Positions 16,672 through 61,762 of a DNA stretch of 64,000 nucleotides are shown piece by piece. Each line of letters opens with the position of its first letter. Position 1 is the first letter of the stretch. The position numbers and the translations under genes are program-made. Under the pieces are notes generated by a model that was not told where the DNA came from, ran no database searches, and worked only from the letters and a program-made list of their open reading frames with translations. Where the stretch lies: positions 18,296-82,295 of the forward strand of contig CANBTI010000001.1 of assembly GCA_947372355.1 (NCBI GenBank), read 5' to 3'. This DNA is from Bdellovibrionales bacterium. GTDB lineage: Bacteria; Bdellovibrionota; UBA1018; CAIMNF01.

Positions 16672-16692
16672 GATTGATTACCTCTCATAAAA

Positions 16693-18516: not shown

Positions 18517-18520
18517 TCGC

Positions 18521-24443: not shown

Positions 24444-24550
24444 AAAATAATTTTACACGATGATTTTATTTTCAGAAAGGACTTCCAAAAATTATTTTAT
24501 TATAATAGCTTCTCGACTCGTTCAGCATCAGGATATTGGGATCATTGATT

Positions 24551-31342: not shown

Positions 31343-33346
31343 CTACTCAGATAACACATTGATCACTCGCGGGGAAACGGGAATCAATGTTGATTTTATT
31401 ATATCTTTATTTTCATTCATTAATTGTGCTTGAACAAGTCCTTCCGGAACCTGAACGGATAAAAACCTTGGACAGAGTCCCTCTAGTGGGTAATCCAAAC
31501 TTAGTTTTTGATCACATAACACTGAATAGCTTTTAGATTCTAAACCAAATTTTTCAGTTAGATTTTCGATCTTTGCGATGTAGTGATTTCTGAATGCATC
31601 AATCTTTTTTGTATTGAACTCGCCCAAAATCATTCCACTTTGGTCATTTAAGTTTATGTTTACCTGTTTTAGCCAAGTGTAAATTAACTTTTCTGGATAT
31701 TGCTTTAATATAAACACACCCTTGCGAGTACGTTTATTTAATTGGTATCGGTATTGGTAGCTTTTTTCACCGTTTAATTTAGATGAAACATCAACAAAAA
31801 CTGGATATCCAGGAATTACGTTTATGTTTCTTAGGATTGCTAAGCCGTTTGAGTTTGTTTTAGTTTGAACTTCCGTTTGTGTTGAAATACCAACCGTCAG
31901 TCCACTTATATCATTTTGAGAATCTTTTTGTTCTCCTTTTACAATTTTGATGGGCACATTAATTGTTATTGGAGCAACTAAATCTAAATAGGTAACTGTT
32001 CCGCTTAAAACGGGTGTAAATATGGTTGTGTTTTCATCTTGTTTCTTTTGTGAAACTAACTCAACTACACCGGCACCCGGTTCTACATTTAGGATGATGA
32101 AATATTTTTTTGCATTCAATTCAAAATATTCAACCTCTTCTGATCTACCAGAAAATTCAATTTTGTATCCGTCTGGAAGTTTACCTAAGATCATTCCCAT
32201 TTCGCTCGAATAATGAACTCCAGATTTGATTGCTAAAAGTGCTACTGAGTTTTGATCTAATAATAGTGTACCGTTTGAACTAACTTGTGGGTAGTAACTC
32301 AACAGAGGGAAATATCCTTCTGTTTCCACCTTTACCCAGCCTTCTTCGTTCCCGTTTTTGGATATCCATGTTTTGCGCGTTGGGCAAATTTGAGTAGCCT
32401 CTTGGATTTCATTTTGTATAGGCTTTAATAAATTCATCTTAGGAAGCAAACTGCATTCTTTAGAGTCTTTAGTAAAACTTTGTTGATCACTATTGGTATC
32501 GTTTTGAACGTCGTTGTTGTGATCGATTTCATCCTCGACTGGAGTTGCCGTCGGCTTTTTATAGTTTGTTACTACAGGAGTTTTAATTTTATTATTCGAT
32601 ACATAGGATTCAATATGCTTCTCTAAAAGTGCATTTTCAATTTTTTTACCTAAATCAATATCGTTATTTTCAGTTATTTTTATTGGTTCTACTCTCACTT
32701 GAGCTGAGCTTTGTTCAATATTTACTTTGATTGAATCTTTTTCTATCGGCTTATTAATAATAGGTTCATTTATTTTTGCATTGCTCGATTGTAATTGTAT
32801 ATTTGGTTTTGTTTTTTGAGTATTCAAGTGGTGAGTACTCATTTTATATTTAGTCGCAATAGCTTGTAATGGCATTTTAGTCGCCGAAGAAGATGCAATC
32901 ACAATTGACTCTGTTTTTAACGGAGTATTGTTCATCACCATGATAAAATTGTTGCTCAATTTTTTTGATGCGATTTGGTAATCTTGAAATAAATCAGTGC
33001 TATTAATTTTTGCAACAACGTTTGCTAATTTATCAAAATTACTATGTTTGGTAGCTAGGCTAACTTTTCTATAGTTCTTGATGCTTTTTTCAAGATGAAA
33101 ATCTGCTAATTTTATTTCTTGGTTTCCAATATTTGAAGCGGGATAATCAACAGTAGCTAACGATACTTTTTCTTGATTAATTGCTGTCGAAATCCAGTTA
33201 ATTTTAGAGTAACTAATTTCTCTATTTGAAAAAATATTATCTATTTTTATAGTATTAAAATTTGCACCAGAGACAAAGCCTGAAAGAAGGCACGCCGAAG
33301 TAACAAGAGTAAAGCGTAATGCTTTTGGTGAAATGAATCCGTTCAT
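31343..33346 (-). CDS. Large secreted hypothetical protein (signal peptide, 667 aa)
   Basis: Signal peptide LVTSACLLSGFVSGA. No recognisable domains. Sits directly upstream of xseB with a 3-nt gap. Confidence 0.5.
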   Translation of the reverse strand: MNGFISPKALRFTLVTSACLLSGFVSGANFNTIKIDNIFSNREISYSKINWISTAINQEKVSLATVDYPASNIGNQEIKLADFHLEKSIKNYRKVSLATKHSNFDKLANVVAKINSTDLFQDYQIASKKLSNNFIMVMNNTPLKTESIVIASSSATKMPLQAIATKYKMSTHHLNTQKTKPNIQLQSSNAKINEPIINKPIEKDSIKVNIEQSSAQVRVEPIKITENNDIDLGKKIENALLEKHIESYVSNNKIKTPVVTNYKKPTATPVEDEIDHNNDVQNDTNSDQQSFTKDSKECSLLPKMNLLKPIQNEIQEATQICPTRKTWISKNGNEEGWVKVETEGYFPLLSYYPQVSSNGTLLLDQNSVALLAIKSGVHYSSEMGMILGKLPDGYKIEFSGRSEEVEYFELNAKKYFIILNVEPGAGVVELVSQKKQDENTTIFTPVLSGTVTYLDLVAPITINVPIKIVKGEQKDSQNDISGLTVGISTQTEVQTKTNSNGLAILRNINVIPGYPVFVDVSSKLNGEKSYQYRYQLNKRTRKGVFILKQYPEKLIYTWLKQVNINLNDQSGMILGEFNTKKIDAFRNHYIAKIENLTEKFGLESKSYSVLCDQKLSLDYPLEGLCPRFLSVQVPEGLVQAQLMNENKDIIKSTLIPVSPRVINVLSE

Positions 33347-33393
33347 TTTTAAATCTAACTTAATGATGAAGTATTAATCTTCAATTCACAAAT

Positions 33394-42429: not shown

Positions 42430-44342
42430 GACTTAATTTGCTCGATCCTATTTATGTGCTTATTTTTAATGAAAATCATCAAATTTGCTACTGCAGCGGG
42501 AGTTACTCCGGATATACGAGACGCTTGGCCAATATTTTCAGGGCGTGTTTCTAATAATTTACTTTTAATCTCGTTTGATAAACCAGGAACAATTTTATAA
42601 TCAAATGAAGTTGGTATTTTCATGAGTTCAGCGTTACGAACTCCTTCAAGCAACTGAAGATCCTTTTCGATATATCCATTATACTTAATTTGAATTTCAA
42701 CTTGCTCAAGAACTGAAAAATTAATTTCATCAGTTACAAACCCAAGCTTAGCAAGAATTGAAAAATTAACTTCTGGACGTCTTAACAAGGCCTCAGCGGA
42801 AATGCGGTCTTTAATTTCTGTTAGTCCTAGGCCAGTAAAAAGTACATTAGTGGCAAGAGTTGGATAAAAGTAAAAACTAGAAATTTCTGATTTCAGCTTT
42901 TCAATTTTAGAAAATTTAATATCAAAAATATTCTTTTCACGATCACCCAACATTCCAACCTGAATGGCGCGAGGTGAAAGTCTTAGATCTGCATTATCTT
43001 CACGAAGAAGAAGTCTATATTCTGCGCGCGACGTAAACATGCGATAAGGTTCATCTGAACCCTTCAAAATAAGATCATCAATCATGACCCCAATGTATCC
43101 CTCATGACGCGATAAGATAAATTCTGGTAAACCCAAAGTATAATGAGCTGCATTAATTCCTGCAATAATCCCCTGACCCGCCGCTTCCTCATAACCAGAA
43201 GTTCCATTCACTTGGCCTGCGAAGAAAAGACCAGGAACGTCCTTGCATTCTAGAGTTCCCTTTAGCTGCCTTGCGTCAACAGAGTCATACTCTACTGCAT
43301 ATGCATATCTAATAAATACGGCTTTTTCTAAACCAGGAATTGAATGAACAAACTCTTCCTGCACTTCAATCGGGAGAGAAGTAGAAATTCCATTTACATA
43401 AATTTCATCCACATCTAAACCCTCAGGCTCTAAAAAAAGCTGATGGCGATCTTTATCTTTAAAACGTGAAATTTTATCTTCTATAGAAGGACAATAACGT
43501 GGACCAATGCCAGTAATTGCTCCGCTATACATTGCCGACAAACCAATATTTTTTTCAATAATGTCGTGTGTAGTTTGATTGGTATAAGTTAAATAACAAT
43601 TTACTTGAGGAAGCGCAGGGTAAACATCTGCTCCATGGTAAAAAGAAAAAGGAAGTAAAACTTCATCACCTGGTTGTGGAGTGGTAACGGTCCAATCGAT
43701 TGAATCTTTATGCAGTCTTGGTGGTGTGCCTGTTTTAAGACGACGAAGACTTAACCCTAAGATTTTTAAATCTTCACTCAGAGTTTTAGAAGATTTATCT
43801 CCTAGTCGTCCGCCCTCTTCTTGCTCTTTCCCCCTGTGCATGATCGCACGTAAAAAAGTTCCTGAAGTGATGACCACTGATTTTGCGCGAATTTCACCTG
43901 TATATTCTGTGCTAGAAATTTTAACGCCTAAAACTTGTTTTATACCCAAATCATTATTTTCAATGATGAGACCACTCACTTCTCCCTCAATAATCTCCAA
44001 ACCAGGAAGAGACTTCAAAAGAGATTGCATATTTTCAGCGTAAAGTTTTTTATCGCACTGGGCGCGCGAAGAGCGAACGGCCGGACCTTTGCTAGAATTC
44101 AATCTTCTAAATTGGATGGTTGATAGATCGGTGATTCTTCCCATCACGCCACCAAGTGCATCAACTTCTTTTACCATTTGGCCTTTAGCTAATCCGCCGA
44201 TGGCTGGGTTACAAGACATTGCACCAATCTTGTTTTGATCAAGTGTGATCATAGCAGTGCGCGCACCTAATGTAGCGGCAGCATTTGCAGCTTCACATCC
44301 AGCGTGACCGCCTCCAATAACAATAACATCGTAATATTTCAT
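42426..44342 (-). CDS. mnmG: tRNA uridine-5-carboxymethylaminomethyl modification enzyme MnmG (GidA)
   Basis: FAD motif YDVIVIGGGHAGCEAA. 638 aa. Confidence 0.95.
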   Translation of the reverse strand: MKYYDVIVIGGGHAGCEAANAAATLGARTAMITLDQNKIGAMSCNPAIGGLAKGQMVKEVDALGGVMGRITDLSTIQFRRLNSSKGPAVRSSRAQCDKKLYAENMQSLLKSLPGLEIIEGEVSGLIIENNDLGIKQVLGVKISSTEYTGEIRAKSVVITSGTFLRAIMHRGKEQEEGGRLGDKSSKTLSEDLKILGLSLRRLKTGTPPRLHKDSIDWTVTTPQPGDEVLLPFSFYHGADVYPALPQVNCYLTYTNQTTHDIIEKNIGLSAMYSGAITGIGPRYCPSIEDKISRFKDKDRHQLFLEPEGLDVDEIYVNGISTSLPIEVQEEFVHSIPGLEKAVFIRYAYAVEYDSVDARQLKGTLECKDVPGLFFAGQVNGTSGYEEAAGQGIIAGINAAHYTLGLPEFILSRHEGYIGVMIDDLILKGSDEPYRMFTSRAEYRLLLREDNADLRLSPRAIQVGMLGDREKNIFDIKFSKIEKLKSEISSFYFYPTLATNVLFTGLGLTEIKDRISAEALLRRPEVNFSILAKLGFVTDEINFSVLEQVEIQIKYNGYIEKDLQLLEGVRNAELMKIPTSFDYKIVPGLSNEIKSKLLETRPENIGQASRISGVTPAAVANLMIFIKNKHINRIEQIKS

Positions 44343-44359
44343 AAAACTGAAGCGATTAA

Positions 44360-44770
44360 CTACCGCTGAGGTGCATTTTTGTCGATGTAATTGATTATTT
44401 CTTCGAGAGTAGTTCCGGGAGTAAAAATCATATGAGCTCCGGCTTCTTTCAGAGAATCAAAATCTTCTTCGGGAATAATTCCACCCACTAAAAAGAGAGT
44501 GTCATTCATACCTGCGGATCTTACCCCATTGATCACTTCTGGGACGAGGGCATTATGGGCACCAGAAAGTACACTGATTCCAACTACATGGGCGTCTTCT
44601 TGAATGGCAGCCTGAACGATCATTTCGGGCGTTTGGTGTAATCCAGTATAAATCACTTCAAATCCGGCATCTCTCAAAGCTCTGGCAATCACTTTGGCGC
44701 CTCGATCATGCCCATCTAGGCCTGGTTTAGCGATTAAAACTCTGATTTGGTTGCGTTTATTCATTTCCAT
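44360..44770 (-). CDS. Acyl-CoA mutase B12-binding small subunit (IcmB/MutA-like)
   Basis: 136 aa. Contains the DxHxxG cobalamin-binding motif ([10 protein letters not shown]), SVLSGAH and GGIIP. Confidence 0.75.
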
Positions 44771-44806
44771 AACCTACCGAAATCTTTAGGAAAAATCAAT
44801 TTTAAC

Positions 44807-44851
44807 AAAAAAATAGGTTAAGTATATGTAATTATTACACAAACTTAACCT
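44807..44851 (-). terminator. Rho-independent-terminator-like hairpin between the mutase large- and small-subunit genes
   Basis: Minus-strand sense: AGGTTAAGT-loop-ACTTAACCT followed by TATTTTTTT. Confidence 0.45.
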
Positions 44852-45121
44852 ATATTAGTCTCCCCTGAATTTCTGGAGGAGAGCCTGAGCCAATGGCAGC
44901 AATAATAGGAAAAGTAATAACTCACCCATTGTTCCCCACTTTCTCTGTGGCAAAACTAAACCATCAACACATTATTATAATTCTTAATCAGCAATGCTTA
45001 TGCCAAAGAGTAAAAAAATATTTCGGAAACATTACAATTGTTTTATGAGGTGCGTAACGAGTTATCCAATTAAGAGACGTTTAAATAACTATTATGCACC
45101 AGTGCGATTTGAACTAATGAC

Positions 45122-46777
45122 TTAGAATTTACCGTCTTCTCGATATTCTCCATACACACCACGAAGAGTGTCGCAAACTTCTTGGAGGGTAGAATAAACT
45201 TTAACCGCTTCTAAAATTGAAGGCATCAAATTCACACCTTTTTCAGCTGCTTCTTTCACATCGGAAAGACACTTTTTAACAGCAACGTTATCGCGACGAG
45301 CTTTAAGCTCTTTTAGTTTTTGAATCTGCTTTTCTCCAACAGTGCGATCAATGTACAATGTTCCCATTGTTCTTTTCGCTTCTTGTTGTTGAAATTTATT
45401 CACTCCAACCATTACCTTTTCTTTACTCTCTAATTGCCTTTGAAAACGATAAGCACTATTTGCGATTTCAGATTGAGGATAACCATTTTCAACTGCTTTA
45501 ACCATTCCACCCATTTCATCGATTTTATCAATATAGGCGAGAGCATCTTTTTCAACTTTATTGGTGAGATATTCAACCAGATAAGAACCACCTAGTGGAT
45601 CTGCAAAATTAGCTACCCCACTTTCTTCAGCAATGATTTGTTGTGTACGAAGCGCAATCACCACGGCTTCATCGGTAGGTAGGGCTAAGGTTTCATCCAT
45701 TGAATTTGTATGAAGTGAATTTACACCTCCCAAAACACCTGCCATTGCTTGAACAGCAACACGAACAATATTGTTCATTGGTTGTTGAGCCGTTAAAGAA
45801 ACTCCTGCTGTTTGAGCGTGAGTGCGAAGCATCCATGATTTTGGATTTTTAGCTCCGTATTTATCTTTCATTTTTCTAGCCCAAATTCTGCGAGCTGCAC
45901 GAAATTTAGCAATCTCTTCAAAAAAATCATTATGAACATCAAAAAAGAAACTTAATCTTGGAGCGAATTCATCAATATCCATTCCACGCTTTACTGACTC
46001 TTCAACATAAGCCAATCCATCTGCCAACGTGAAGGCTAGTTCTTGGACAGCTGTCGCTCCGGCTTCACGAATATGGTAACCAGAAATTGAAACTGTATTC
46101 CAATTTGAATAATGTTTTGTTCCATATTCAATTGTATCAATCACACATTTAACTGCTGGAGCAATTGGGAAAAGCCACTCTTTTTGAGCAATGTATTCTT
46201 TTAAAATATCATTTTGAAGAGTTCCGCGAACCTTTTCTTTTGGAACACCTTGTTTTTCAGCCATTGCATAGTACATGGCAAGAATTACAATTGCTGGTCC
46301 GTTGATGGTCATCGATGTAGTCACATCACCAAGCGGAATACCCGCAAATAACCTTTCCATATCTTCTAAAGAAGAAACAGAAACACCACATTTGCCTACT
46401 TCTCCCAGTGATTTTGAGGAATCACAATCGTATCCCATTAATGTTGGCATATCAAAAGCAGTGGATAAGCCTGTTTGACCTTGTTCTAATAGCAATTTAA
46501 AGCGTTTATTGGTTTCATCTGGAGATGCAAAACCTGCAAATTGGCGCATCGTCCAGAGTTTTCCACGATACATATTATGCTGAACACCGCGAGTAAAAGG
46601 AAACTCGCCTGGCAAACCAAGATCCTGATCAACATTGAAATTAATTTTTTCTAAATCTTCCGGAGTGCAAAGAAGTGGAACTTCCATGTCGCTCAAGGTG
46701 GTAAACCGCTCAGGGCGTGGCGGAGATTTTTTTTCAATTTCAGCTTTTTTCTTTTCCCACTCTGCACGCTTACTCAT
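45122..46777 (-). CDS. Acyl-CoA mutase catalytic (large) subunit; isobutyryl-CoA-mutase-like signature
   Basis: Methylmalonyl-CoA-mutase-family TIM barrel ([25 protein letters not shown]...). The positions that align to MCM Tyr89/Arg207 appear to be Phe (RQFAGF) and Gln (YIAQKEW). No C-terminal B12 domain (it is split). Confidence 0.7.
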
Positions 46778-46802
46778 AGTTCATCCTTAAAAAATTAGTT
46801 TA

Positions 46803-47990
46803 TTACTTTTTTGCAAGTTCATTTGCTGCGATCACAAGTTTTTGAATTTCACTTGTTCCTTCGTAAATTTCAGTAATTTTTGCATCACGAAAATTTCTCT
46901 CCACAACATATTCCTTTGTATAGCCGTAACCACCATGAACCTGAATGGCTTTTGTTGCTATCCACATTGCAGCTTCGGAAGCTGCAAGTTTTGCCATGGC
47001 CGCTTCACGCGCAAAGGGAAGACCTAAATCTTTTCTTTGAGCTGCAAACCAAGTCAACAAGCGAGCTCCTTGTAATCGGGTTGCCATTTCAGCAATATAA
47101 AATTGAATTGCTTGTAATTTTGCAATAGGAGCTCCGAACTGTTCGCGTTCTGATGCGAATTTTTTGGAAGCCTCAAGAGCACATGTTGCAATACCAAGAG
47201 CCTGAGATGCAATTCCAATTCTTCCGCCATCCAGTGTGCTCATAGCAATTTTAAAGCCTTCACCTTCTTTTCCTAATAAACACTCATCAGGAACAATCAT
47301 GTCATCAAAAAACAATGATGCGGTTGAGGACGCGGTAATTCCAAGTTTATCCTCTAGCTTATTAACACTGAAACCTTTTGTTTTTGTATCAACAACAAAT
47401 GCACAAATCCCTTTATGTTTTAATTCAGGATTAATAGTTGCAAGTAAAATGCAGTAATCTGCTTCGCGTCCATTGGTGATCCAGTTTTTTGAACCATTAA
47501 TTTTATATCCACCTGGAACTTTTTCAGCGCGACACTTGAGGCCGGCGGGATCAGATCCATGACCTGGTTCAGATAAAGCAAAGCAACCTAGCTTGCTACC
47601 GCTTGCGAGCGGCTTTAAAAATTTTTCTTTTTGAAGATCATTACCAAACGCCTGAATTGGATAGCAAACTAACGAGTTGTTTACCGACATGATCACGCCA
47701 GTAGAGGCACAAGCAGCAGAAATAGATTCCATCGCCATTGCGTAGGTAACTGTATCTAGCCCAGCACCGCCCCACTTCTCTTCAACCATGATTCCCATCA
47801 AACCCATTTCAGCCATTTGCTTTACATTTTCAGTGGGAAACTCGCCCGATTGATCATGATGAGAGGCAACTGGTGCCACTGTTTTTTGAGCAAACTGATT
47901 AATTTGATCCATCATCATTATTTGTGATTCATCGAGATTTGGCCAAGTTTTTGAGTAGTCCATAATTTTTCCTTTCATCAATTTGATCAC
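46803..47990 (-). CDS. Acyl-CoA dehydrogenase (short/branched-chain type)
   Basis: ACAD motifs (GCFALSEPGHGSDPAG; YEGTSEIQKLVIA). The true start may be the MDYSKTW Met at 47963. Confidence 0.85.
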   Translation of the reverse strand: MIKLMKGKIMDYSKTWPNLDESQIMMMDQINQFAQKTVAPVASHHDQSGEFPTENVKQMAEMGLMGIMVEEKWGGAGLDTVTYAMAMESISAACASTGVIMSVNNSLVCYPIQAFGNDLQKEKFLKPLASGSKLGCFALSEPGHGSDPAGLKCRAEKVPGGYKINGSKNWITNGREADYCILLATINPELKHKGICAFVVDTKTKGFSVNKLEDKLGITASSTASLFFDDMIVPDECLLGKEGEGFKIAMSTLDGGRIGIASQALGIATCALEASKKFASEREQFGAPIAKLQAIQFYIAEMATRLQGARLLTWFAAQRKDLGLPFAREAAMAKLAASEAAMWIATKAIQVHGGYGYTKEYVVERNFRDAKITEIYEGTSEIQKLVIAANELAKK

Positions 47991-48088
47991 GATTTACAAA
48001 AAAAGTTAATTCAAAAAGACACTTAGCTGAGCTTGACAAAATTACAACGGAGTAAAAAACTAGAGACTATAAATTTTAAGGCAAAACT

Positions 48089-49477
48089 ATGAAAAAAATT
48101 GATCTAAAACTATTCAGTGTTCTGATGCTCCTTGCTTTTGTAATTTACTTTGCTCAAACCAGAGATTTCGGATTGATGTTTGACGGTCTTACTTATTCAA
48201 CTCTTGCTAAAAATATTTTAAGAACTGGGGATTGGAAAGTTCTTCATTATGACCTTAGGCAATATCCTGATGCATATTACCACCCACCCCTAGCAATGTG
48301 GATTCAGGCATTGATCTATAAGTACTTCGGGAGCGCTGAACCGATCTCTCGCATTTTTCCTGCAACATGTGCACTCCTCACTACAGGTATTTTGTTTTTA
48401 TTTACTCGCGCTCGTTTTGGAATAACAGCGGCGTTTTGGGCAACGATCGCACTCATCACTTCAACTCGATTCATTAAATGGGGAACTAATTTCTATCTTG
48501 ATGGAATTGCAGGATTCTTTAATTTTACAGGCTTTATTATTTGGATGTGGATGATCACTAAAACATCAAAAAACAATAAAACAGATCCATTGATTGCTGG
48601 ATTTGCAGGTGTATTTTTAGGATTAGGATTCATGACGAAAGGTGTTGTGGCATTTCCTATTTTAGTGGCGGTATTGGTTTCAACTCTACTTTTTTTAAGC
48701 TTAAGAAACCTAATATTAATGTGTGTTTTTACTATAGGTGCCCTATTACCCATACTTGCCTGGATTCAACTCGGTGATGGATTGCATTACTTAGAAATGT
48801 ATTTTAAAACATCTGCTTTTGGTCGCTCAAGTGAGTTGAATTTTCGACCATGGCAAAACATTCGAAACATTTGGATCCCATGGTGGCCTATTTTTGCCAT
48901 TAGTATATTCACAGCTTTTAGAAAATTTATAAAAAGAGAAATGATCATCCCTTCGCTTTGTGCTGCTGCATTAGCAATGCCTTCGGCACTCACCTTTAGT
49001 GCTAATTATTTCGAACATTACATTACACCATTTTTTCCTTTTGCGTCTCTTCTGGTTGGAATTCAAATTTCAAATTGGATAAGAAAAGATTACGTAGAGA
49101 AATACTTAAAGTTTACCTTTGGTGCTGCCGTTGTTCTTGCTGTATTACTCGCTACCATTGCGCCGAATGTAAACAAACAAAAAGACATCCCTTCGATGTT
49201 ATGGATTCGTGAAATAAACACTCTTCCAAAAGAGAAGTTAATCACAATTAGAAAAATCGTCTTCACCGAAAAAAGTGCTGAAATATGGCTAAATTTAGCA
49301 ACAATTCTTGCTAAAACTAATTGGCAAGCAATTGGATTGTTTGGGGTGAATGAAAAGGCTGAGGCAAACACTATTCTAGTTACAAAAGCTGGTGAAATTC
49401 CTGATTCTTCTTGGAAAAAAATTCCTTACCTTTATGTAGAAGGAAATGATTTTTATTCTTCTGAAAATAATTTTTAG
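48089..49477 (+). CDS. Polytopic membrane glycosyltransferase, GT39/GT83 (ArnT/PMT_2)-like
   Basis: Multiple TM helices. N-terminal pattern FAQTRDFGLMFDGLTYSTLAKNILRTGDW...YYHPPLAMWIQAL is typical of ArnT/PMT-family enzymes. Confidence 0.5.
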   Translation: MKKIDLKLFSVLMLLAFVIYFAQTRDFGLMFDGLTYSTLAKNILRTGDWKVLHYDLRQYPDAYYHPPLAMWIQALIYKYFGSAEPISRIFPATCALLTTGILFLFTRARFGITAAFWATIALITSTRFIKWGTNFYLDGIAGFFNFTGFIIWMWMITKTSKNNKTDPLIAGFAGVFLGLGFMTKGVVAFPILVAVLVSTLLFLSLRNLILMCVFTIGALLPILAWIQLGDGLHYLEMYFKTSAFGRSSELNFRPWQNIRNIWIPWWPIFAISIFTAFRKFIKREMIIPSLCAAALAMPSALTFSANYFEHYITPFFPFASLLVGIQISNWIRKDYVEKYLKFTFGAAVVLAVLLATIAPNVNKQKDIPSMLWIREINTLPKEKLITIRKIVFTEKSAEIWLNLATILAKTNWQAIGLFGVNEKAEANTILVTKAGEIPDSSWKKIPYLYVEGNDFYSSENNF

Positions 49478-50325
49478 GAATACGTGTAAAAACCACGTCC
49501 AGATTTTTTACCCATCCATCCGGCTGCAACATATTGTTTCAACAAAGGGCAAGGACGATACTTAGAGTCGCCTAGTCCTTGATGAAGAATTTCCATAATC
49601 GCTAAACATGTATCAAGGCCAATAAAATCGGCTAAGGTGAGTGGTCCCATGGGTTGATTTGTTCCAAGCTTCATCGCAATATCAATATCTTCAACTGATG
49701 CAATTCCCTCATAAAGGGTGTAAACAGCTTCATTAATCATGGGCATTAAAATTCGGTTCACGGCAAATCCTGGAATATCGCGGGCTTCAATAAAAGTTTT
49801 TCCCATTTTTTCAGCCGTCGCACGAATCGTGGCAAAAGTTTCCTTTGAGGTTTGAATCGCACTAATTCCCTCAACCAACTTCATCACAGGAACTGGATTC
49901 ATAAAATGCATTCCAGCAAACTGGGTTGGGCGCTTAGTTGCTGCAGCAAGTTCTGTAATACTAATTGAAGAAGTATTTGAGGCAAAAAGAGCAGAAGCTT
50001 TTGTAGTTAAATCCAGCTCTTTCCATATTTTTTTCTTCAGTTCAATATTTTCTGAAACTGCCTCGATGATTAAATCACAATCTTTTAAATCGGAGAGCGC
50101 ATTCACACCCTTCAACCGAGATGTCGTGTTAGAAACCTCTTCTGCTGTGAGTTTTTGTTTTTGAACGGCTTTATCCAGTTGGGCTTTTATCTTCTCTATA
50201 CCCACATTTGCACTTGATAGATTTTGATCTGCTATTAGTACTTCAAAACCATTTTGGGCAGCAACTTGTGCAATTCCTTGTCCCATTTGACCAGCGCCCA
50301 CTACACCTATTAATTTTATATTCAT
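49474..50325 (-). CDS. hbd: 3-hydroxybutyryl-CoA/3-hydroxyacyl-CoA dehydrogenase
   Basis: NAD Rossmann motif IGVVGAGQMGQGIAQV. About 283 aa. Confidence 0.85.
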   Translation of the reverse strand: MNIKLIGVVGAGQMGQGIAQVAAQNGFEVLIADQNLSSANVGIEKIKAQLDKAVQKQKLTAEEVSNTTSRLKGVNALSDLKDCDLIIEAVSENIELKKKIWKELDLTTKASALFASNTSSISITELAAATKRPTQFAGMHFMNPVPVMKLVEGISAIQTSKETFATIRATAEKMGKTFIEARDIPGFAVNRILMPMINEAVYTLYEGIASVEDIDIAMKLGTNQPMGPLTLADFIGLDTCLAIMEILHQGLGDSKYRPCPLLKQYVAAGWMGKKSGRGFYTYS

Positions 50326-53768: not shown

Positions 53769-53918
53769 TTATTTACCAGCAACAGTAGGAACGAGGCGTT
53801 TACGGCCGCGAGCACGACGACGAGCTAATATTTTTTTTCCACCGGCAGTCGCTAAACGAGTGCGGAAGCCATGGGTGTTAGTTCTCTTCTTACGAGATGG
53901 TTGATACGTACGTTTCAT
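53769..53918 (-). CDS. rpmH: 50S ribosomal protein L34
   Basis: Manually translated (below the ORF-track size cutoff): [49 protein letters not shown]. Confidence 0.9.
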
Positions 53919-54002
53919 AGTCGTAATGACTTATCGGATAAGTGGCCTCATTGTCAATCCCACAAGTTCATGTTAGTTAAGTACGTCGCAGGTAGTATAA
54001 CC

Positions 54003-55466
54003 ATGAATGATTTAAATCTTTGGGCAACAGCATATCGTCAGATTCTCCAAAACCACGCAAATCCAACCGAAATGAAGTTTTGGCTTGATGCGTTAAATTG
54101 GGGTAAGCTCGAACCTATGGCTTCTGGTAAGGTGCATATATTTCTCACAGCACCCAGCGTATTTTATGCAAACTTTATTAATCAACAATTTAAGGCCGAA
54201 ATCGAGAGCGCTACCTCTCAAATTTTAGGTAAATCCTGTGAAGTTTCAATCGCCGTATTAGAATCTAAGCCCGCTGAAGAAGTAGAAGAAGCAATTATAT
54301 CTATCAGTAATACTTCAGTAAATAACACTTTTGAAAACCCTTTGTCTCCACCTACCGCTTCTGATTTTACTCCAGCAATGGCTCAATCTAATCAAAGTTC
54401 CCCTTCTCCAGGTTTTGTGAATCGTGGATCTCATAAATCAAATGTAATCATTAATGATTTTTTAGACCCAACTTTAACCTTTGATAACTACATCATGGGG
54501 CCTTCAAATCAATTTGCTTATGCATCCGCTTTTTCAACTTCAGAAAAACCAGCCGTTCAATACAATCCACTTTTTATTTATGGCCCTCCAGGAGTTGGAA
54601 AAACCCATCTATTGCATGCTTTAGGTAATCAAATAAAAAAGAAAAATCCTCATATTCGGGCTTATTTTGTTTCGGCTGAAAAATTTGTGAACGAATTTAT
54701 CGAAAGCATACAACATAAAAATCCAGGCGATTTTAGGGCTAAATACCGCGATAATGTTGATCTTCTTCTCATCGACGATATTCAATTTATCGTGGGTAAG
54801 GATCGTTCAGAAGAAGAGTTTATCCATACCTTCAATACATTACACAGTCTTAAAAAAATGATTGTTCTTACTTCTGATAAAGCGCCAAAAGACATCGATG
54901 GTTTAGAGGACCGAATTCGTACTCGTTTTGAAATGGGACTGGTTGCTGATATTCGCCCGCCAGAAATTGAAACTCGCATTGCAATTTTAAAAGCAAAAGC
55001 GGAAGCAGACGACATGTATTTGCCAGATGATGTTGCAACATTTTTAGGTACCTATGTAAAAGATACGGTCAGAAACCTTCATGGTGCTTTAGTAAAGCTT
55101 CAACAATATGCTTCACTCACAGGCTCAGAAATAACTTTAGATTTAGCTAAGCAAGTTTTACAAAACTCCATTCCTGAAGAAGGACAAGAATACACAGTTG
55201 AAATAATACTCAATGCTGTTTGTAAGCACTTTAATCTTAAGATGAAAGAACTAAAGGGAACATCCAGAGCAAAACAGTTTTCTATGCCTCGCCAAATTGC
55301 CATGTATCTGATTAGAAAATACGCAAATTTAGGATTTAGAGAAGTAAGTCAGATTTTTGACAAAGATCACTCCACCGCAGTTCATGCTTATCAAAAAATC
55401 GAACTGGAGATGGAATCTGACCCTGAACTAAAGAGAAATGTGGAAACCATTAGAGAGCAGCTGTAA
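54003..55466 (+). CDS. dnaA: Chromosomal replication initiator DnaA
   Basis: AAA+ Walker A GPPGVGKTHLLHA, sensor motifs, and a C-terminal DNA-binding domain. Start taken at MNDLNLW. The ORF-track N-terminal extension runs antisense through rpmH and is rejected. Confidence 0.9.
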   Translation: MNDLNLWATAYRQILQNHANPTEMKFWLDALNWGKLEPMASGKVHIFLTAPSVFYANFINQQFKAEIESATSQILGKSCEVSIAVLESKPAEEVEEAIISISNTSVNNTFENPLSPPTASDFTPAMAQSNQSSPSPGFVNRGSHKSNVIINDFLDPTLTFDNYIMGPSNQFAYASAFSTSEKPAVQYNPLFIYGPPGVGKTHLLHALGNQIKKKNPHIRAYFVSAEKFVNEFIESIQHKNPGDFRAKYRDNVDLLLIDDIQFIVGKDRSEEEFIHTFNTLHSLKKMIVLTSDKAPKDIDGLEDRIRTRFEMGLVADIRPPEIETRIAILKAKAEADDMYLPDDVATFLGTYVKDTVRNLHGALVKLQQYASLTGSEITLDLAKQVLQNSIPEEGQEYTVEIILNAVCKHFNLKMKELKGTSRAKQFSMPRQIAMYLIRKYANLGFREVSQIFDKDHSTAVHAYQKIELEMESDPELKRNVETIREQL

Positions 55467-55596
55467 AAAGCGTCAAATTAGCCACATTAATCAAATAAAC
55501 TATAATAAAATAAAATAATTTCATTTAAATTTCTTACAAAACGTAAGAACCTATTATTAGGCCTGGGGCGCAAGGATGCTTCACGGGAGGATAATT

Positions 55597-58500
55597 TTGG
55601 TTTCAAGGATGAAGATTTTTAAAAAAGTTTCTACACTTTTCTCAGTGTTATTCATAACTCTGAGCCCTTCTACGTCCTTTGCTAACTGGACACGTTATCA
55701 AAATTATAAAATAAAATTAGACGTTCCAACAGGCTGGAAAATTGAGCGTGATCTTTTTGGAATGCCAATTACCGTATTGGGTCCTGAAAGAAATGGAGAG
55801 CGTGCAGTACTGAGTGTTCAGCACACCCCCGTTTTTGGTTTAGAATTTAATCATCAAAATATAGTTAAAACTAAAAATCAATACTATGAAGGAAGAAAAA
55901 AATGGGTTGATTCACTTGAAGACGCTTCTTTTTTAAGTGAAATTCCATACCAACACATAAAGCAAGAAAATGGGAACGACGGCTTTGAAATGGGTTTTAG
56001 ATACCATGTCAGAAACCTCGACTTAGAAGAAAAAAGTATTCAATTGAATTGTGGAAATCGACTTTTTTTAATTAAAACTCTTTCAAGCAATAAAATTCCT
56101 GAAGCAGATACCGCTCAATTAGCAAAATTAGTGAATGAGTTAGATTGCGTTTCTACCACTTCAAAAGATGGCGCTTATGAACCAAGCGTTCTTCAAGATT
56201 TTGATCGTAAATTTAAGGATCAAATATCTGGAACTTCACCTTGGCCTACAAAAGAGCAAATTAAAGATTCTGGCACACCTGAAAAAGCAGTCATGCTTGA
56301 AGCATTGGTAGAGTTCTATAAAAATTACGAAAATTCTGGAGGAGAAGATTCTTATTCATACAATCGTAATCCAGTTAAAGATCAATATTTTGCAAAAATT
56401 AAAGATAGAACAGATCAAATTTTTTCAATCTTCTTATCTAAAGCGTCTGCAAAAGATGGTTATGATTGTTTTTTTGGTGGTTGGCCAAGTAAATTTATAA
56501 AAAAGAATGGTGTAGCTACCTGTGGTTATCCATGGGAAACAAATTCAGATTATTCAAAAAACAATTCTGGCTGTGGAGAAGGAAAACTAGGCTGTAACCC
56601 TTCTCTATTTGGATCAAATATTTGTGTTGATGTAAGCAATAGCGGCGAACGATCACATGCTACTCTTTCTTGCGAAATGGGTTTTCGCTCTAGTGGTAAA
56701 AGTTACGAAGATGTTGTTAAATCAGCTGATTTTGATCAATCCGTTCTAAATAACACTCTAAACTCAGCAAAAGAAGTGTGCAGTCAGGAACCATATACCT
56801 CAGCAAATTATGGTTTATGTTCAACCCTTAAAGAAAAATTAGGAATCAGTATCTCATCCGGAAAACATGCTCAAGATGAATCCGATGTAAAATTTATTAA
56901 TGGCATGGAAGAAATGAAGCCAGAAAATTTTGATGAATATGTAAAGGCTACAGAAAAAAACTATAAAGAATTTGAAGCTCGATGCATCGACGAAAAGGGT
57001 GATCTTAAAACAAATGTTGAAGGATGTTTAGAGGATCATTTAGCCATTTTAAATGACTTAGAAAAAATTGATAAAAGATCAAAAGATATTGGGCAAGAAT
57101 TACAAGAAGAAGATGCACCAAACTCAATCAATAATGGAAATTGTTCAAAGGCAGACTGTAGTTCACCCACTGTTGAAAGTGTTCAACCTAAAAAGGATGA
57201 ACCATCAAATGGTAAGTGTTCAGTTCAAGAGGAAAAAAGAAAAAAAGAAAAAGAATGTAATTGGTCTAAGGGTATGTTCATGGCAGGAAGTTGTGCTTGG
57301 AATGTAATCACTTCAATGGTGAGTTCATTGTGGGGAACAATCAAAGCAATAGGTGAGCTTGCGTGGGATGGTGTGAAGTGGGTTGGGAATAAATCTGTTC
57401 AGGGTGCCAAATGGCTTGCTAGTTTGGTTGGTTATGAAGATGAATCATCTAAAAAATTAAATACAGCTGCACAAACGAGTAATAGCGCAATTGAATCTTT
57501 CAAAAAAGATCCAATGGGATCTGCTATCAATTTTTTCAAAAGTATCTATGATGGTGTTGTAAATTTTGTTTCTACTGATGTTGCCTGCGAAAAATGGTCT
57601 GGCGTTCCACACAATTCAACATGTTTATTGCCTGCAAGTGGTTGGAAATGTATGCCTTGCATGGATCGAATGGATACCGTTTGTTCAACAGTAGGATATG
57701 TTGCGGCTGAATTTCTACCTGCTTTCTTCACCGGTGGAGCAACTTCTGCTTTAAAAGGATCTGCAATCGCTGCAAAAGTAGGTGGATATCTTGGTAAAGT
57801 GAGTAAGCTGGGGAAACTCACTCGACTAGAAGCTGATATTATAAAACTTACGAGTAAAGCAACTAAAGTAGAAAGATACGGCTTAAGAGCAGCTAAATAT
57901 GAATCAGAAGTTTTAAAAGCAGAAATCGGTATTGCTGGAAATTTAAGTAAAACACAAAAAATTATTGGAAAAGTTTATAATGTAAGCCGCTGGCCAGTTA
58001 AACAATTCAATAAAATAAAGAGTGCATATACCCGTGCAAAAAATGTATTAACTGGGTTTAAATCTAAGGCCTTTGGTTCTGTTAAAAATACAATTGAAGG
58101 ATTACAGAGACTACGAAAAAAATATTATGTTGTTAAAGCTGGTTCATGGGTAGTTGAAAACACTGTTGTTCAACCATTAAAATTAGCAGCAAAAATAGCA
58201 ACCGCTCCTATTCGTTATCCAATGAGATGGACAAATAGTTATGTCAGGACACAAGCGAAGATATATAAGGTAGGACTAAGATTTGGAGAAAAAAGATTTA
58301 ATGATGTGTTGGTAAAATCAGCAAGCATGAGTAAGTATCCAACCTTAGCTAAAAACATAGCTTTATATAGCTCTATTTCTAAATATCCTGCATTTGGCTC
58401 TCATATGTTGGATGAGTTTAGAGAAAGACTCAGCATGAAAGATGATAACAATCCAAATATGTTTTGGAAATCATCCCATGAAATTGAAGTACAAGCTAAA

Positions 58501-59121
58501 CTTGATGGTAAAAATCCTGAGGAAGTAAAATCAATTCTAAAGAAAAACAGGATCGATTTAATGACTAATACAATCGTTATGGATGCCTTAAATGCGGGTA
58601 AAGATCCAAAAGAAGTGGATTTAAAATACCTTTCAAAAATTAGAGGGATTTCCAATGAAGAAATTCGTGTGGAATCAATCGATTCAAGACTTCAAGCAAT
58701 TGCCAATGGAACTTTGCCAACTTTCACTCAAAGTGATTATGATGCAATAGCAAAAATTAATAAGATCAGTTCAACAGAAGCAAAAAATCAAATTCAAAAT
58801 GAAGTTAAAATTCAAGTTGCTTCATCAAAGGTAATCAATCTTTTGAATGAGGGTAAAAAACCAGAAGATGAGGCATTGAAAAATCTAGCATCACTCAAAA
58901 AAGTGAACGTTGATGAACTGGTAATTGAATCCATTGATTATAGAATTAATTCTGTATTGGGCGGAGTAAAACCAAAGTTTTCTAGTTTTGATTATGAAAC
59001 ATGGGCAAGAGTAAATCATGTCTCTATTGAAGAGGCTAAAAAGTATATCGATTCTGAAGTGCAGGATTCATTAAATATGATTTCTGATCCTTCATCAACT
59101 AATGGAGCAAAAACGCAATGA
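55597..59121 (+). CDS. Large secreted Cys-rich hypothetical protein (cassette gene A, about 1175 aa)
   Basis: Probable TTG start at 55597, 6 nt after the SD GGGAGGA. Signal peptide ...LFITLSPSTSFA. The N-terminal domain carries a DVPTGWK motif. The middle is cysteine-rich. The C-terminus carries two tandem repeats of about 70 aa. Confidence 0.55.
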   Translation: MVSRMKIFKKVSTLFSVLFITLSPSTSFANWTRYQNYKIKLDVPTGWKIERDLFGMPITVLGPERNGERAVLSVQHTPVFGLEFNHQNIVKTKNQYYEGRKKWVDSLEDASFLSEIPYQHIKQENGNDGFEMGFRYHVRNLDLEEKSIQLNCGNRLFLIKTLSSNKIPEADTAQLAKLVNELDCVSTTSKDGAYEPSVLQDFDRKFKDQISGTSPWPTKEQIKDSGTPEKAVMLEALVEFYKNYENSGGEDSYSYNRNPVKDQYFAKIKDRTDQIFSIFLSKASAKDGYDCFFGGWPSKFIKKNGVATCGYPWETNSDYSKNNSGCGEGKLGCNPSLFGSNICVDVSNSGERSHATLSCEMGFRSSGKSYEDVVKSADFDQSVLNNTLNSAKEVCSQEPYTSANYGLCSTLKEKLGISISSGKHAQDESDVKFINGMEEMKPENFDEYVKATEKNYKEFEARCIDEKGDLKTNVEGCLEDHLAILNDLEKIDKRSKDIGQELQEEDAPNSINNGNCSKADCSSPTVESVQPKKDEPSNGKCSVQEEKRKKEKECNWSKGMFMAGSCAWNVITSMVSSLWGTIKAIGELAWDGVKWVGNKSVQGAKWLASLVGYEDESSKKLNTAAQTSNSAIESFKKDPMGSAINFFKSIYDGVVNFVSTDVACEKWSGVPHNSTCLLPASGWKCMPCMDRMDTVCSTVGYVAAEFLPAFFTGGATSALKGSAIAAKVGGYLGKVSKLGKLTRLEADIIKLTSKATKVERYGLRAAKYESEVLKAEIGIAGNLSKTQKIIGKVYNVSRWPVKQFNKIKSAYTRAKNVLTGFKSKAFGSVKNTIEGLQRLRKKYYVVKAGSWVVENTVVQPLKLAAKIATAPIRYPMRWTNSYVRTQAKIYKVGLRFGEKRFNDVLVKSASMSKYPTLAKNIALYSSISKYPAFGSHMLDEFRERLSMKDDNNPNMFWKSSHEIEVQAKLDGKNPEEVKSILKKNRIDLMTNTIVMDALNAGKDPKEVDLKYLSKIRGISNEEIRVESIDSRLQAIANGTLPTFTQSDYDAIAKINKISSTEAKNQIQNEVKIQVASSKVINLLNEGKKPEDEALKNLASLKKVNVDELVIESIDYRINSVLGGVKPKFSSFDYETWARVNHVSIEEAKKYIDSEVQDSLNMISDPSSTNGAKTQ

Positions 59122-59654
59122 AAACAATACTGTCAATTTTATTAGTCATCTGTGGTGCAAAAGCATTTGGTGAATCTAAAAATTACAACATTCAAAATCA
59201 AAAAATTACGATTGATGTGCCAACAGGATGGAAAGATGTTGAAGATTTTGCTGGCAGTCCACTCACCTTTTTTGGGCCTGAAAATAAAGACGGACCAAGA
59301 ACAGTAGTAACCATTTCACCAACTGGACAAGAAGATAAAAATCATTTTTTCGCTGATATGAAAAAAAATATCGCTGGTTATAAAGTTGGACGTGAGGATT
59401 GGTTAAAAGGGAATTTTGGAACCTCCATTTCTTACGATAAATATAAGGAAGAAAAATGGACTGGGATAGAAGTAGCTCGCGAATTTGGTTATCATTACGA
59501 ACTACCAAGCGGAAAGTTTTATGAAAGATCCGTTTATGTGATGTGCGGTGGTAATAAACTTGTGTACATCAAATCATTAGTTCCAGAACAGTTTGAATCA
59601 ACTCATAATTCGTTAGTAGAAAAATCAATTAAAAGCTTAGGGTGCGCAAAATGA
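59118..59654 (+). CDS. Secreted small protein paralogous to the N-terminal domain of cassette gene A (cassette gene B)
   Basis: Signal peptide MKTILSILLVICGAKAFG. Shares DVPTGWK..GPE..C-G-N-L..IK-L...LGC blocks with residues about 40-190 of gene A. Its start overlaps the gene A stop (ATGA). Confidence 0.55.
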   Translation: MKTILSILLVICGAKAFGESKNYNIQNQKITIDVPTGWKDVEDFAGSPLTFFGPENKDGPRTVVTISPTGQEDKNHFFADMKKNIAGYKVGREDWLKGNFGTSISYDKYKEEKWTGIEVAREFGYHYELPSGKFYERSVYVMCGGNKLVYIKSLVPEQFESTHNSLVEKSIKSLGCAK

Positions 59655-61762
59655 AAAATACAGATCAACAAAACGGAAAAATAATCATGAACTCATTATC
59701 AAAATTATTGGCTTTTGCAATTTGTTTACAGCTAACGGTAGGAATTTATCCAGTTCAAAACCACATGGCTTATGCGCAAGATGATCGTAGTATCAGTACT
59801 AATGAAAGTAAGGCAAATCGTGGGCCTGCTTCAGATAATTTGAATATGGATGCTAATGAAGCTAATGATCATTCTAAAAATTATATTAAATTATTTAATG
59901 ATCAATGTGTTGGTTCAAATGGAAAAATAAAAGGCAGTACTGCTTTTATGCATGATAAGGAAATCGGTTCTAGTGAAGAACCAAGAATGTATAATTGTTC
60001 TGAAGCGGCAACAATAATTCAAAAAATTATTATACCAGGAATGAATGATATTTCTGAAGAAGTAAAACATTCAAAAATAAATCCAAACTGCCCTACTTGT
60101 GGAATTCCAAACCAAGATGAAGATTCTGTTAAAAATGGTCAGCTGGTTTCGGGATCATGTTCTGCAGAAGAACAAAAGAAGTTTGCTAAACAAGATTGTT
60201 CCTTTGGTTGCAATATTTTATATACCATTGGTTCACAAGATAAAAGTTGCCCTAAATCTTCTGGTATTTCTGGAAAATGCGCACTTGAAATTTCAAAAGG
60301 CGTTTTAAAAGGTATTTATGATGTTCTTGCTTTTCCATTCATTATGGTAAAAGACGCCGGTGTTTGGACATATAATAAAATTTTTGGCAAATCCGAGAAT
60401 GAAACTACAGAAAAATCACAAGTTCTTAGTGGTTTAACAGATCAAGATATTAAGGATGGGGAAAAAAATCCTGAAAAATTAAAACAAACTTTACTTCAAA
60501 GATCTGCAAAATTCTTTAATGATCTTGGAAAAGCAATTATTGGTTATCCCGAGTATGAGGAAAAATCAAAATGTGCTGATTGTGCTGCTAAAGCAGATCT
60601 TATGTGCGGTGTTATAGGTAATACTAGCGGATTTTTAATCACAATGTTTGGTAATGGAGCAATTTTTGGTGCTACTGAAGGTATTGCTGAAAGAATTGCA
60701 TCAAAACTTGTTAAGGTATCAAAAGGTACAGGCAAATTTGCTAGTATTGCTAGTAAAACTATACTCGTAGCTGAAAAAACTAGTTTAGCTGCTACTAAAG
60801 TTGGTAAATTTGTTTCTAAGCCATTTATTCGTTTTGGTGAAGTTGTGGCGAGTGGAGCCTCAAAAGTTTCTGTTTCAAGTTTAAAATGGTGGGAGTCTTT
60901 TAAATCAAAAAAATTATATGAAAATTTAATTAAATTTAAAGATTCTAGATCTTTAAAAGTTGTATCTAACTCAATCCCAGGAAAAATAACACTTTCGATC
61001 GGGCGTGGAGTTAGTAATAGTTTTGAAAAAGCAGGTGTTTTCGTTAAAAAAATTGGTAAGGTTGCTAGTAATATTCAAGAAACTACTCATGATTTTGGTC
61101 TTGGATTAACTAATTCAAAGTTATTAAGAGCTCAAAAAATTAATAAACTTAGATCAGCTAAGGCTGCAGCTAATGCTACAAATGAAGCTCTTCGTGGAGT
61201 GGATGAACTTAAAGTAGTGAAAGATGCTTCTGAAGGCAGAACTGCTGAACAGTGGACTGATTTAAAACAAAAAGCTTCCAATGAACTTCAGGGCTTAAAA
61301 GTGAAACATTTGGATGATGTTGAAAATGCGGTGCCAGCCGAATTTGAAATTAATGCAGGAAAAGAAAAAAGTATTCTTGTTGAAACTTCAAAAGGAACGC
61401 GTGAATTAAAAATCGCAAAACCTGCTGATGTTGAAAGCATCCATACTTATCAAGATGGAAAATTAGCCATCGTTCAACATAGAGATGGTTCATACATCAT
61501 TCATGATATGGATGCCGGTTCTCACCTCACCCAAGTTCCAAAAGGAAAAGAAGAGTTTGTAGATGCTCTTCTTGGTAAGAAAACTAAGAACTTTGATGAT
61601 CTTGAAGGCATGTCTTACACACAAGTGAAGACAAACTTAAAAATCAACGGAACTAAGTTTACTGAAGAAGTAGATGCAACTGGAGCTAAAACAATGAAAA
61701 TTGAAACTCCAAATGGATGTAATCCGAAATCACTCAGTTTTGGTGTGGATAAAGCGATCTAA
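59642..61762 (+). CDS. Secreted Cys-rich hypothetical protein paralogous to the central module of cassette gene A (cassette gene C)
   Basis: Signal-like LSKLLAFAICLQLTVGIYPV (alternative start MNSL at 59687). Shares the blocks C-x2-C-x5-C-x2-(I/V)G...F..G(A/G)..G...I..K and C..G..G.CA...G.L.GIYDVLAFP with gene A. Overlaps gene B by 13 nt. Confidence 0.5.
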   Translation: MRKMKNTDQQNGKIIMNSLSKLLAFAICLQLTVGIYPVQNHMAYAQDDRSISTNESKANRGPASDNLNMDANEANDHSKNYIKLFNDQCVGSNGKIKGSTAFMHDKEIGSSEEPRMYNCSEAATIIQKIIIPGMNDISEEVKHSKINPNCPTCGIPNQDEDSVKNGQLVSGSCSAEEQKKFAKQDCSFGCNILYTIGSQDKSCPKSSGISGKCALEISKGVLKGIYDVLAFPFIMVKDAGVWTYNKIFGKSENETTEKSQVLSGLTDQDIKDGEKNPEKLKQTLLQRSAKFFNDLGKAIIGYPEYEEKSKCADCAAKADLMCGVIGNTSGFLITMFGNGAIFGATEGIAERIASKLVKVSKGTGKFASIASKTILVAEKTSLAATKVGKFVSKPFIRFGEVVASGASKVSVSSLKWWESFKSKKLYENLIKFKDSRSLKVVSNSIPGKITLSIGRGVSNSFEKAGVFVKKIGKVASNIQETTHDFGLGLTNSKLLRAQKINKLRSAKAAANATNEALRGVDELKVVKDASEGRTAEQWTDLKQKASNELQGLKVKHLDDVENAVPAEFEINAGKEKSILVETSKGTRELKIAKPADVESIHTYQDGKLAIVQHRDGSYIIHDMDAGSHLTQVPKGKEEFVDALLGKKTKNFDDLEGMSYTQVKTNLKINGTKFTEEVDATGAKTMKIETPNGCNPKSLSFGVDKAI

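Follow-up and report, generated by a model that had tools for sequence, protein, structure and literature searches.

The question raised by this locus is which acyl-CoA mutase is encoded by two minus-strand genes in a 64,000-nucleotide stretch of a Bdellovibrionales bacterium (the window; positions 18,296 to 82,295 of contig CANBTI010000001.1, assembly GCA_947372355.1), and what occupies the 351 bp by which the two genes are parted. The answer advanced here, to which a probability of about 0.8 is given for its two parts jointly, is that the genes are predicted to encode a stand-alone adenosylcobalamin (AdoCbl)-dependent isobutyryl-CoA mutase (ICM) of the IcmA/IcmB type, and that the gap likely holds a separate mini-gene module. 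Domain content, specificity residues and gene context, on which the enzyme call draws, are directly observed.

The large subunit is a full-length match to PF01642 (MM_CoA_mutase, 732 bits) and scores 754 bits with TIGR00641 (acid_CoA_mut_N) against a cut-off of 304; no B12 domain is found in its 551 residues by Pfam or NCBIfam. The separately encoded small subunit of 136 residues matches PF02310 and TIGR00640 (183 bits against a cut-off of 57), and its residues 17-24, GLDGHDRG, form the DxHxxG base-off/His-on motif. Its start is the first ATG (44770), which is conserved in relatives, the N-termini aligning as M-[ED]-x-x-x-R-N-Q-I-R. In the proposed mechanism the large subunit would provide the substrate barrel and the small subunit would bind B12 through the histidine of DxHxxG.

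Substrate specificity was assessed from HMMER and MAFFT alignments, the MAFFT references being MutB, human MUT, HcmA (4r3u_A), Xaut_5021, Xaut_5043 and IcmF; the X. autotrophicus Py2 hcm cluster (Xaut_5018-5021), the Xaut_5042-5044 cluster of that organism and the Ideonella IcmF were recovered by tblastn against plasmids. In methylmalonyl-CoA mutase (MCM) a Tyr and an Arg hold the substrate carboxylate. Phe80 of the window protein (RQFAGF) aligns to Tyr89 of P. shermanii MutB (RQYAGF in PDB 1req), to the Tyr of human MUT and to the Phe of IcmF; PDB 5req, which we take to be the Y89F mutant of MCM, has the same string as the window protein, RQFAGF, where 1req has RQYAGF. Gln198 (KEYIAQKEW) aligns to Arg207 of MCM (KEFMVRNTY) and to the Gln of IcmF, and in the MAFFT alignment Ala107 corresponds to MutB 116 and to Asp117 of HcmA, and Tyr234/His235 to MutB 243/244. 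His244, Gln197, Gln330 and other core residues are common to MCM and the window protein. Because Phe80 and Gln198 replace the carboxylate-binding Tyr/Arg pair, the pocket is predicted to fit an uncharged isobutyryl or n-butyryl group, and with such a pocket the enzyme would interconvert isobutyryl-CoA and n-butyryl-CoA.

A signature table built from the sequences in MutB numbering places the window protein among the known classes. At positions 89, 116, 207 and 243-244 it has F, A, Q and YH, as does IcmF; MCM has Y, A, R and YH, 2-hydroxyisobutyryl-CoA mutase (HCM, represented by HcmA) has I, D, Q and YH, and Xaut_5043 has L, L, N and QH. The window protein equals IcmF at every checked position and shows at least one mismatch to each other class. 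The relatives with which it was compared came from a pattern scan with one genome per species, in which at least 595 relatives were confirmed among the 600 stretches listed; 80 loci were retained from these, from Acidobacteriota, Chloroflexota, Myxococcota, Actinomycetota, Nitrospirota and archaea. All 80 loci have the F/A/Q/Y/H set, as do 119 of the 120 nearest proteins in the databases, the column for MutB 207 being biased in these homologue counts by one retrieval pattern that included Q.

The first alternative to be weighed is that the protein is an MCM of the split archaeal/bacterial type, serving propionate or succinate metabolism, as the database names of relatives ("methylmalonyl-CoA mutase", with "family protein" or "N-terminal domain") would have it. 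The NCBIfam MCM equivalog model indeed scores 614 bits, which is however under its cut-off of 876; Phe and Gln stand in place of the two carboxylate-binding residues Tyr89 and Arg207, and the adjacent genes act on C4 acyl-CoAs, not on propionyl-CoA. Known MCMs (P. shermanii MutAB, human MUT) share with the window enzyme the fold family and the radical B12 chemistry, and differ from it in Tyr89 and Arg207 and in having the B12 domain fused to the catalytic chain. An MCM is therefore considered extremely improbable. The assignment as ICM corrects what appears to be a routine mis-annotation, since relatives carrying the ICM residue pattern are named methylmalonyl-CoA mutase; their database names are generic or wrong.

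A 2-hydroxyisobutyryl-CoA mutase (HCM/RCM type), interconverting 2-hydroxyisobutyryl-CoA and 3-hydroxybutyryl-CoA, would have the attraction that the 3-hydroxybutyryl-CoA dehydrogenase (Hbd) encoded nearby could take its product directly. The best-scoring structure is HcmA of Aquincola tertiaricarbonis (4r3u, 566 bits), the small subunit is HcmB-like, and HcmA/HcmB and their X. autotrophicus counterparts Xaut_5021/5018 resemble the window enzyme in being split, in having similar subunit sizes and in having Gln at 207. In HCM an Asp (117 in HcmA) binds the substrate hydroxyl group. HcmA and its X. autotrophicus homologue have Ile89 and Asp116, whereas the window protein has Phe and Ala as in IcmF; moreover a CoA ligase and a MeaB-like protein are encoded in the X. 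autotrophicus hcm cluster, and no 2-hydroxyisobutyrate-CoA ligase lies beside the window mutase. This reading is judged very improbable.

The residues that agree with IcmF are not accompanied by its architecture. IcmF (PDB 4xc6, and the PGAP-annotated Ideonella dechloratans copy, locus L101; the L numbers are handles of the relatives' loci) has five checked active-site residues, F/A/Q/Y/H, identical to those of the window protein, but it is one chain of ~1,100 aa that joins B12, MeaB-like G and substrate domains, whereas the window enzyme is split and without a G-domain. The NCBIfam IcmF equivalog model gives 390 bits against a cut-off of 1500, and identity between the window large subunit and IcmF is only ~39%. 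A further split mutase, Xaut_5043/5044 of X. autotrophicus Py2, is presumably an isovaleryl-CoA/pivalyl-CoA mutase (PCM), an identification that reportedly goes back to Kitanishi in 2015. It is like the window enzyme in having split large and small subunits that act on aliphatic acyl-CoA substrates, and unlike it in Leu89, Leu116, Asn207 and Gln243-His244 and in the MeaB-like gene that adjoins it. The window enzyme thus has neither the residues of MCM, HCM or PCM nor the architecture of IcmF.

The closest resemblance is to the classical enzyme of S. cinnamonensis, in which, reportedly (work of Zerbe-Burkhardt in 1998 and of Ratnatilleke in 1999), ICM is made up of separately encoded IcmA and IcmB. 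Since separate encoding is the classical form of ICM, the split architecture in the window is not unusual. The large subunit IcmA reportedly also lacks a B12 domain and has Phe/Gln in place of Tyr89/Arg207 of MCM, and IcmB is a small B12 subunit of ~136 aa; even the residue numbers 80 and 198 of the window protein are presumably those of S. cinnamonensis IcmA. Unlike that system, the window genes belong to another phylum, stand in an origin-near cluster with hbd and acd, and are parted by an inserted mini-gene. A sequence-only reading of this stretch had proposed an ICM-like split mutase, with a large subunit lacking the B12 domain, a separate DxHxxG subunit, and Phe and Gln at the positions of Tyr89 and Arg207, aligned by eye; Tyr/Arg or another residue pair at those positions would have spoken against it. 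The alignments with MCM, IcmF, HCM and PCM references place Phe and Gln there, the family models (PF01642/TIGR00641; PF02310/TIGR00640) bear out the division of domains, and Ala rather than the Asp of HCM at a third diagnostic position adds support, as does the gene order around the Ideonella IcmF described below. Its further statements that an acyl-CoA dehydrogenase and Hbd are neighbours and that MeaB is missing from the window also hold.

On the minus strand the order of genes is yidC, mnmE, hbd, acd, icmA, the 351-bp gap, icmB, mnmG, rsmG, parA and parB (coordinates in the table below), and since dnaA follows ~7 kb further on, the mutase locus lies in an origin-proximal region. The acd gene ends 25 bp upstream of icmA, and in the public annotation of an identical contig its start is placed 9 codons downstream (386 aa). 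The best PDB matches of its product are the rat and human short-chain acyl-CoA dehydrogenases (SCAD, 405-407 bits), followed by the short/branched-chain enzyme (SBCAD, 286) and the isobutyryl-CoA dehydrogenase ACAD8 (243), so that the neighbour is SCAD-like and fits a butyryl-CoA pathway. The order hbd-acd-icmA-icmB is kept in all close relatives examined, one of which adds an enoyl-CoA hydratase to the cluster. A PMT_2 glycosyltransferase gene sits between hbd and acd on the opposite strand; it is missing at this position in relatives with 92% identity (L083), and in L089 it shares the strand of the cluster and lies beside an enoyl-CoA hydratase gene. On plasmid NZ_CP088082.1 of Ideonella dechloratans (1273-7372) an annotated fused IcmF is followed directly by hbd and acd, a sign that an ICM-to-beta-oxidation module may recur in different phyla.

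The route suggested by these genes would convert isobutyryl-CoA, e.g. from valine breakdown, to butyryl-CoA by the mutase, and butyryl-CoA would then pass through crotonyl-CoA and 3-hydroxybutyryl-CoA to acetoacetyl-CoA and acetyl-CoA. The gene order suggests such a route from isobutyryl-CoA to acetoacetyl-CoA as its most economical reading, and the predicted function is most likely the feeding of valine-derived carbon into butyrate oxidation. What the enzyme catalyses, which way carbon flows and where B12 comes from are inferred, the direction because crotonase, thiolase and the source of isobutyryl-CoA lie outside the window. The reverse use of the enzyme, i.e. a mainly biosynthetic ICM that makes isobutyryl-CoA from butyryl-CoA for iso-branched fatty acid primers or valine, or a broader mutase that also takes isovaleryl- and pivalyl-CoA, is thought distinctly unlikely. 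The reaction is reversible and valine-catabolic genes are absent from the window, both of which would suit a biosynthetic role, and a broader substrate range has a precedent in IcmF, which also interconverts pivalyl-CoA and isovaleryl-CoA (PMC10481361). The clustering with SCAD-type Acd and Hbd, joined in one relative by a crotonase, agrees with oxidation of the straight-chain product, and the dedicated mutase Xaut_5043 has other residues (L/L/N/QH). If valine-derived carbon does enter butyrate oxidation through the mutase, a B12-dependent route from isobutyryl-CoA to acetyl-CoA is suggested in the Bdellovibrio-like lineage, which would imply cobalamin dependence and possibly external supply. 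The ICM call itself will not surprise specialists in B12 enzymes; the phylum is under-studied.

Several partner genes were sought in the window. MeaB was not found in the 64 kb by tblastn with Xaut_5042, Xaut_5020 and the IcmF G-domain, nor was any fitting P-loop ORF (open reading frame) present: GxxGxGK[ST] occurs only in the ATP synthase beta subunit, in DnaA and in a truncated end ORF (63286-64002) that we take to be RecF. Of the 80 distant loci, 13 have a MeaB gene close to the mutase by tblastn, and of the Bdellovibrio-like loci none does; its absence from the 64-kb window is unremarkable and says nothing on the rest of the genome. A PduO-type adenosyltransferase likewise gave no tblastn match in the window, and an Rfam scan of 43500-48500 (E <= 10) returned chance matches to eukaryotic snoRNAs and miRNAs only, with no cobalamin riboswitch.

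A number of points weigh against the assignment as a catabolic ICM. The signature consists of few positions, and activity in this lineage is predicted from them; by whole-sequence score the top solved structure is HcmA (566 bits), IcmF reaching 300 bits; and the direction of flux is not readable from sequence. In addition, neither a MeaB-type chaperone nor an adenosyltransferase, crotonase, thiolase or branched-chain keto-acid dehydrogenase is encoded in the window, so that the pathway is locally incomplete.

Table. Features of the mutase locus and of the gap between its two subunit genes (window coordinates)
Feature	Coordinates	Strand	Evidence or detail
3-hydroxybutyryl-CoA dehydrogenase (hbd)	49474..50325	-	NF004474 418 bits against cut-off 408; Pfam 3HCDH_N and 3HCDH
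PMT_2 glycosyltransferase	48089..49477	+	
Short-chain (butyryl-CoA type) acyl-CoA dehydrogenase (acd)	46803..47990	-	PDB matches, Pfam, gene table
icmA-like large (substrate-binding) subunit, 551 aa	45122..46777	-	Pfam, NCBIfam, HMMER against PDB, MAFFT, homologue signature counts
icmA-icmB gap, 351 bp	44771..45121		
Palindrome GCACTGGTGC	45096..45105	-	~95 bp upstream of the sigma-54-like element
Sigma-54-type -24/-12 element TGGCATAAGCATTGCT, GG-N10-GC	44990..45005	-	Single match in 64 kb
Conserved leader GCCACAGAGAAAGTGGGGAAC, Shine-Dalgarno-like GGGGA 5-6 nt before small-ORF start	44931..44951	-	Alignment of relatives
Unannotated 24-codon ORF for MGELLLFLLLLPLAQALLQKFRGD	44855..44929	-	Six variants of the same length and frame
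Predicted intrinsic terminator, 11+7 bp hairpin and U7	44807..44853	-	Stem 44814-44852, U7 44807-44813
Motif TTCCTAAAGATTTCGGTAG upstream of icmB	44774..44792	-	Unique in window; in L083, L086, L089, L091, L096, L105
icmB-like small B12-binding subunit, 136 aa	44360..44770	-	PF02310, TIGR00640, DxHxxG

The second part of the question concerns the gap. The earlier description of a terminator-like hairpin in a spacer of about 350 bp was accurate, whereas the statement that the spacer has no ORF was wrong: a conserved ORF of 24 codons lies upstream of the hairpin. It occurs in the window and in L103, L086, L091, L096, L099 and L105, with ATG or GTG as start across variants (GTG in L091, L096 and L099); L105 was the sole phmmer match (E = 3e-4) of the 32-aa TTG-extended ORF against 1.84 billion representatives. 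Among the six variants the variable sites fall on codon positions 1, 2 and 3 as 7/4/20 (P = 0.001), and neither alternative frame is open throughout all six; the codon pattern together with the single open frame is a coding signature, not one of RNA. The peptide is hydrophobic and of the size of a single helix (mean Kyte-Doolittle value 2.6 over residues 4-18). Pfam gives no match to it, and in a metagenome pattern scan with its C-terminus the strict pattern had 0 matches and a relaxed pattern matched two contigs, both of the L091 type.

The small ORF is one of four elements common to the window, L103 and L086, the others being the palindrome, the sigma-54-type element and the leader. The palindrome, with counterparts TCGCACTGGTGCGA in L103 and GCACCGGTGC in L086, is a candidate enhancer-binding-protein site. 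The sigma-54-type pattern, for which a -24 GG and a -12 GC at the spacing of TGGCAC-N5-TTGC were required, has 1 match in the 64 kb where chance would give 0.19; it is kept in L086 (TGGCATATTGATTGCT) and has the consensus form in L103 (TGGCACGTCGATTGC), and no Sigma54_activat protein is found among the window ORFs scanned. The leader ends in GTGGGGAAC and is near-identical in the window, L086, L091, L096 and L103.

Downstream, the terminator hairpin (-18.9 kcal/mol) starts 2 nt past the stop of the small ORF and ends 36 nt before the icmB start, and the 181-nt region that contains it folds at z = -4.1. The consensus fold of five variants has 19 pairs, 4 of them with compensatory double changes and 0 broken in the basal stem, and by this covariation the predicted hairpin is a bona fide intrinsic terminator. 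A simple promoter/terminator scan found nothing above shuffle expectation, the terminator being missed because its stem is A+T-rich; nor did the scan find an antisense promoter of the kind expected for a type I toxin-antitoxin pair. Between hairpin and icmB lies the motif TTCCTAAAGATTTCGGTAG, whose distance to the icmB start codon varies in close relatives from 3 to ~85 nt. In L089 and L105 it is followed by GCCGAT, which is sigma-28-like. A sigma-28 reading of the motif was rejected: TAAAG-N16-GCCGAT is visible in L089/L105 and has no match at this place or elsewhere in the window.

Taken together, the putative activator site, sigma-54 promoter, ribosome-binding site, small peptide ORF and terminator would make up a self-contained unit, and the gap most likely contains an independent gene for a small membrane peptide, as judged from its predicted features, unrelated to catalysis. 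With a separate module in the gap, icmA and icmB probably do not just share one transcript. The earlier suggestion of differential expression or of an unannotated small RNA thus finds support in so far as the spacer resembles a separate transcription unit, and not as regards the RNA, since the unit carries a protein-coding ORF and has no Rfam match. That a hypervariable junction harbours a conserved 24-codon ORF preceded by a sigma-54-type promoter is a new, if small, observation.

The main rival to an independent peptide gene is a leader that gates icmB, i.e. that the spacer is a cis-regulatory region in which translation of the short ORF sets read-through of the terminator; this possibility, with which that of a non-coding small RNA is taken together, is regarded as unlikely. 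The ORF stands directly upstream of icmB in 6 of 6 variants whatever cargo lies further upstream, the distance from stop to hairpin is near constant (1-2 nt) in the five variants with a hairpin, the peptide is Leu-rich, and no convincing promoter was found for icmB itself. A pure RNA function is opposed by the conservation of the C-terminal half of the peptide as amino acids while third positions vary, and a small RNA also by the lack of a match to an Rfam family. Such conservation agrees with a functional peptide, although an arrest peptide with a regulatory role would look much the same. No conserved antiterminator pairing is seen by eye, the L105 variant is without a strong terminator, and the element is missing in relatives with 85-93% identical IcmA. 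L105 retains the peptide and loses the CTCCTC...GRGGAG pairing that is possible in the other variants. Classical attenuation at Leu codons was rejected, as by eye neither the Leu codons nor the would-be antiterminator sequence is conserved between variants.

Quite unlikely also is a more specific form of gating, in which promoter, ORF and terminator would act as a switch before icmB only, so that ribosome-dependent read-through would set assembly of the mutase via its small subunit, irrespective of the catalytic one. If the small ORF did gate icmB, this would be an unusual regulation of an enzyme via its cofactor-binding subunit. Whether peptide gene or leader, the module illustrates that "empty" spacers can hide conserved ORFs, this one being too short for annotation on the identical public contig.

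The length and content of the same gap vary among relatives (L001-L004, L083-L087, L089, L091, L094, L096, L103 and L104). It is 24-30 bp with no content in L003 and L004 (IcmA 75-76% identical to that of the window), 132 bp in L083-L085 (92%) and 189 bp in L089 (85%), with no content called in either case. The mini-gene module is found in the 351 bp of the window and of L001 and L002 (100%) and in the 356 bp of L103 and L104 (91%), and an HTH_XRE gene occupies the 437 bp of L094 (93%). In L086 and L087 (95%) the gap of 916 bp holds a gene for a 175-aa secreted Cys-rich repeat protein (motif GSYPSFDER) and then the mini-gene, and in L091 and L096 (94-95%) 3.5 kb hold a RecQ helicase gene and one for a 549-aa protein, again followed by the mini-gene; neither the 175-aa nor the 549-aa ORF has a Pfam match. 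Judged by these comparisons, the junction between icmA and icmB looks like a lineage-specific hotspot at which foreign cargo is inserted.

The G+C content is 37%, and among named relatives the nearest are metagenome-assembled genomes (MAGs) of Bdellovibrionales and Bacteriovoracaceae; a 19.5-kb stretch with the mutase locus is a 100% match to contig CANCOA010000003.1 of MAG GCA_947379695.1 (L001). The genes dnaA and dnaN are usually adjacent. Here dnaA (53856-55466) and dnaN (62216-63322) are parted by three consecutive ORFs of 1186, 183 and 709 aa (55561-61762, plus strand) that match nothing in Pfam or NCBIfam, and a gene of 1181 aa adjoining dnaA is also called on the identical public contig. 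Two further ORFs, of 676 aa (31343-33373, minus strand) and 525 aa (2704-4281, plus strand), likewise have no Pfam or NCBIfam match. A minus-strand flagellar block at 8323-17544 (fliW, a flagellin-like gene, flgK, flgN, flgI, flgH, flgA and two rod genes) marks the organism as motile, and is followed at 17647-24452 by gcvT and gcvP of glycine cleavage, folD and corA.

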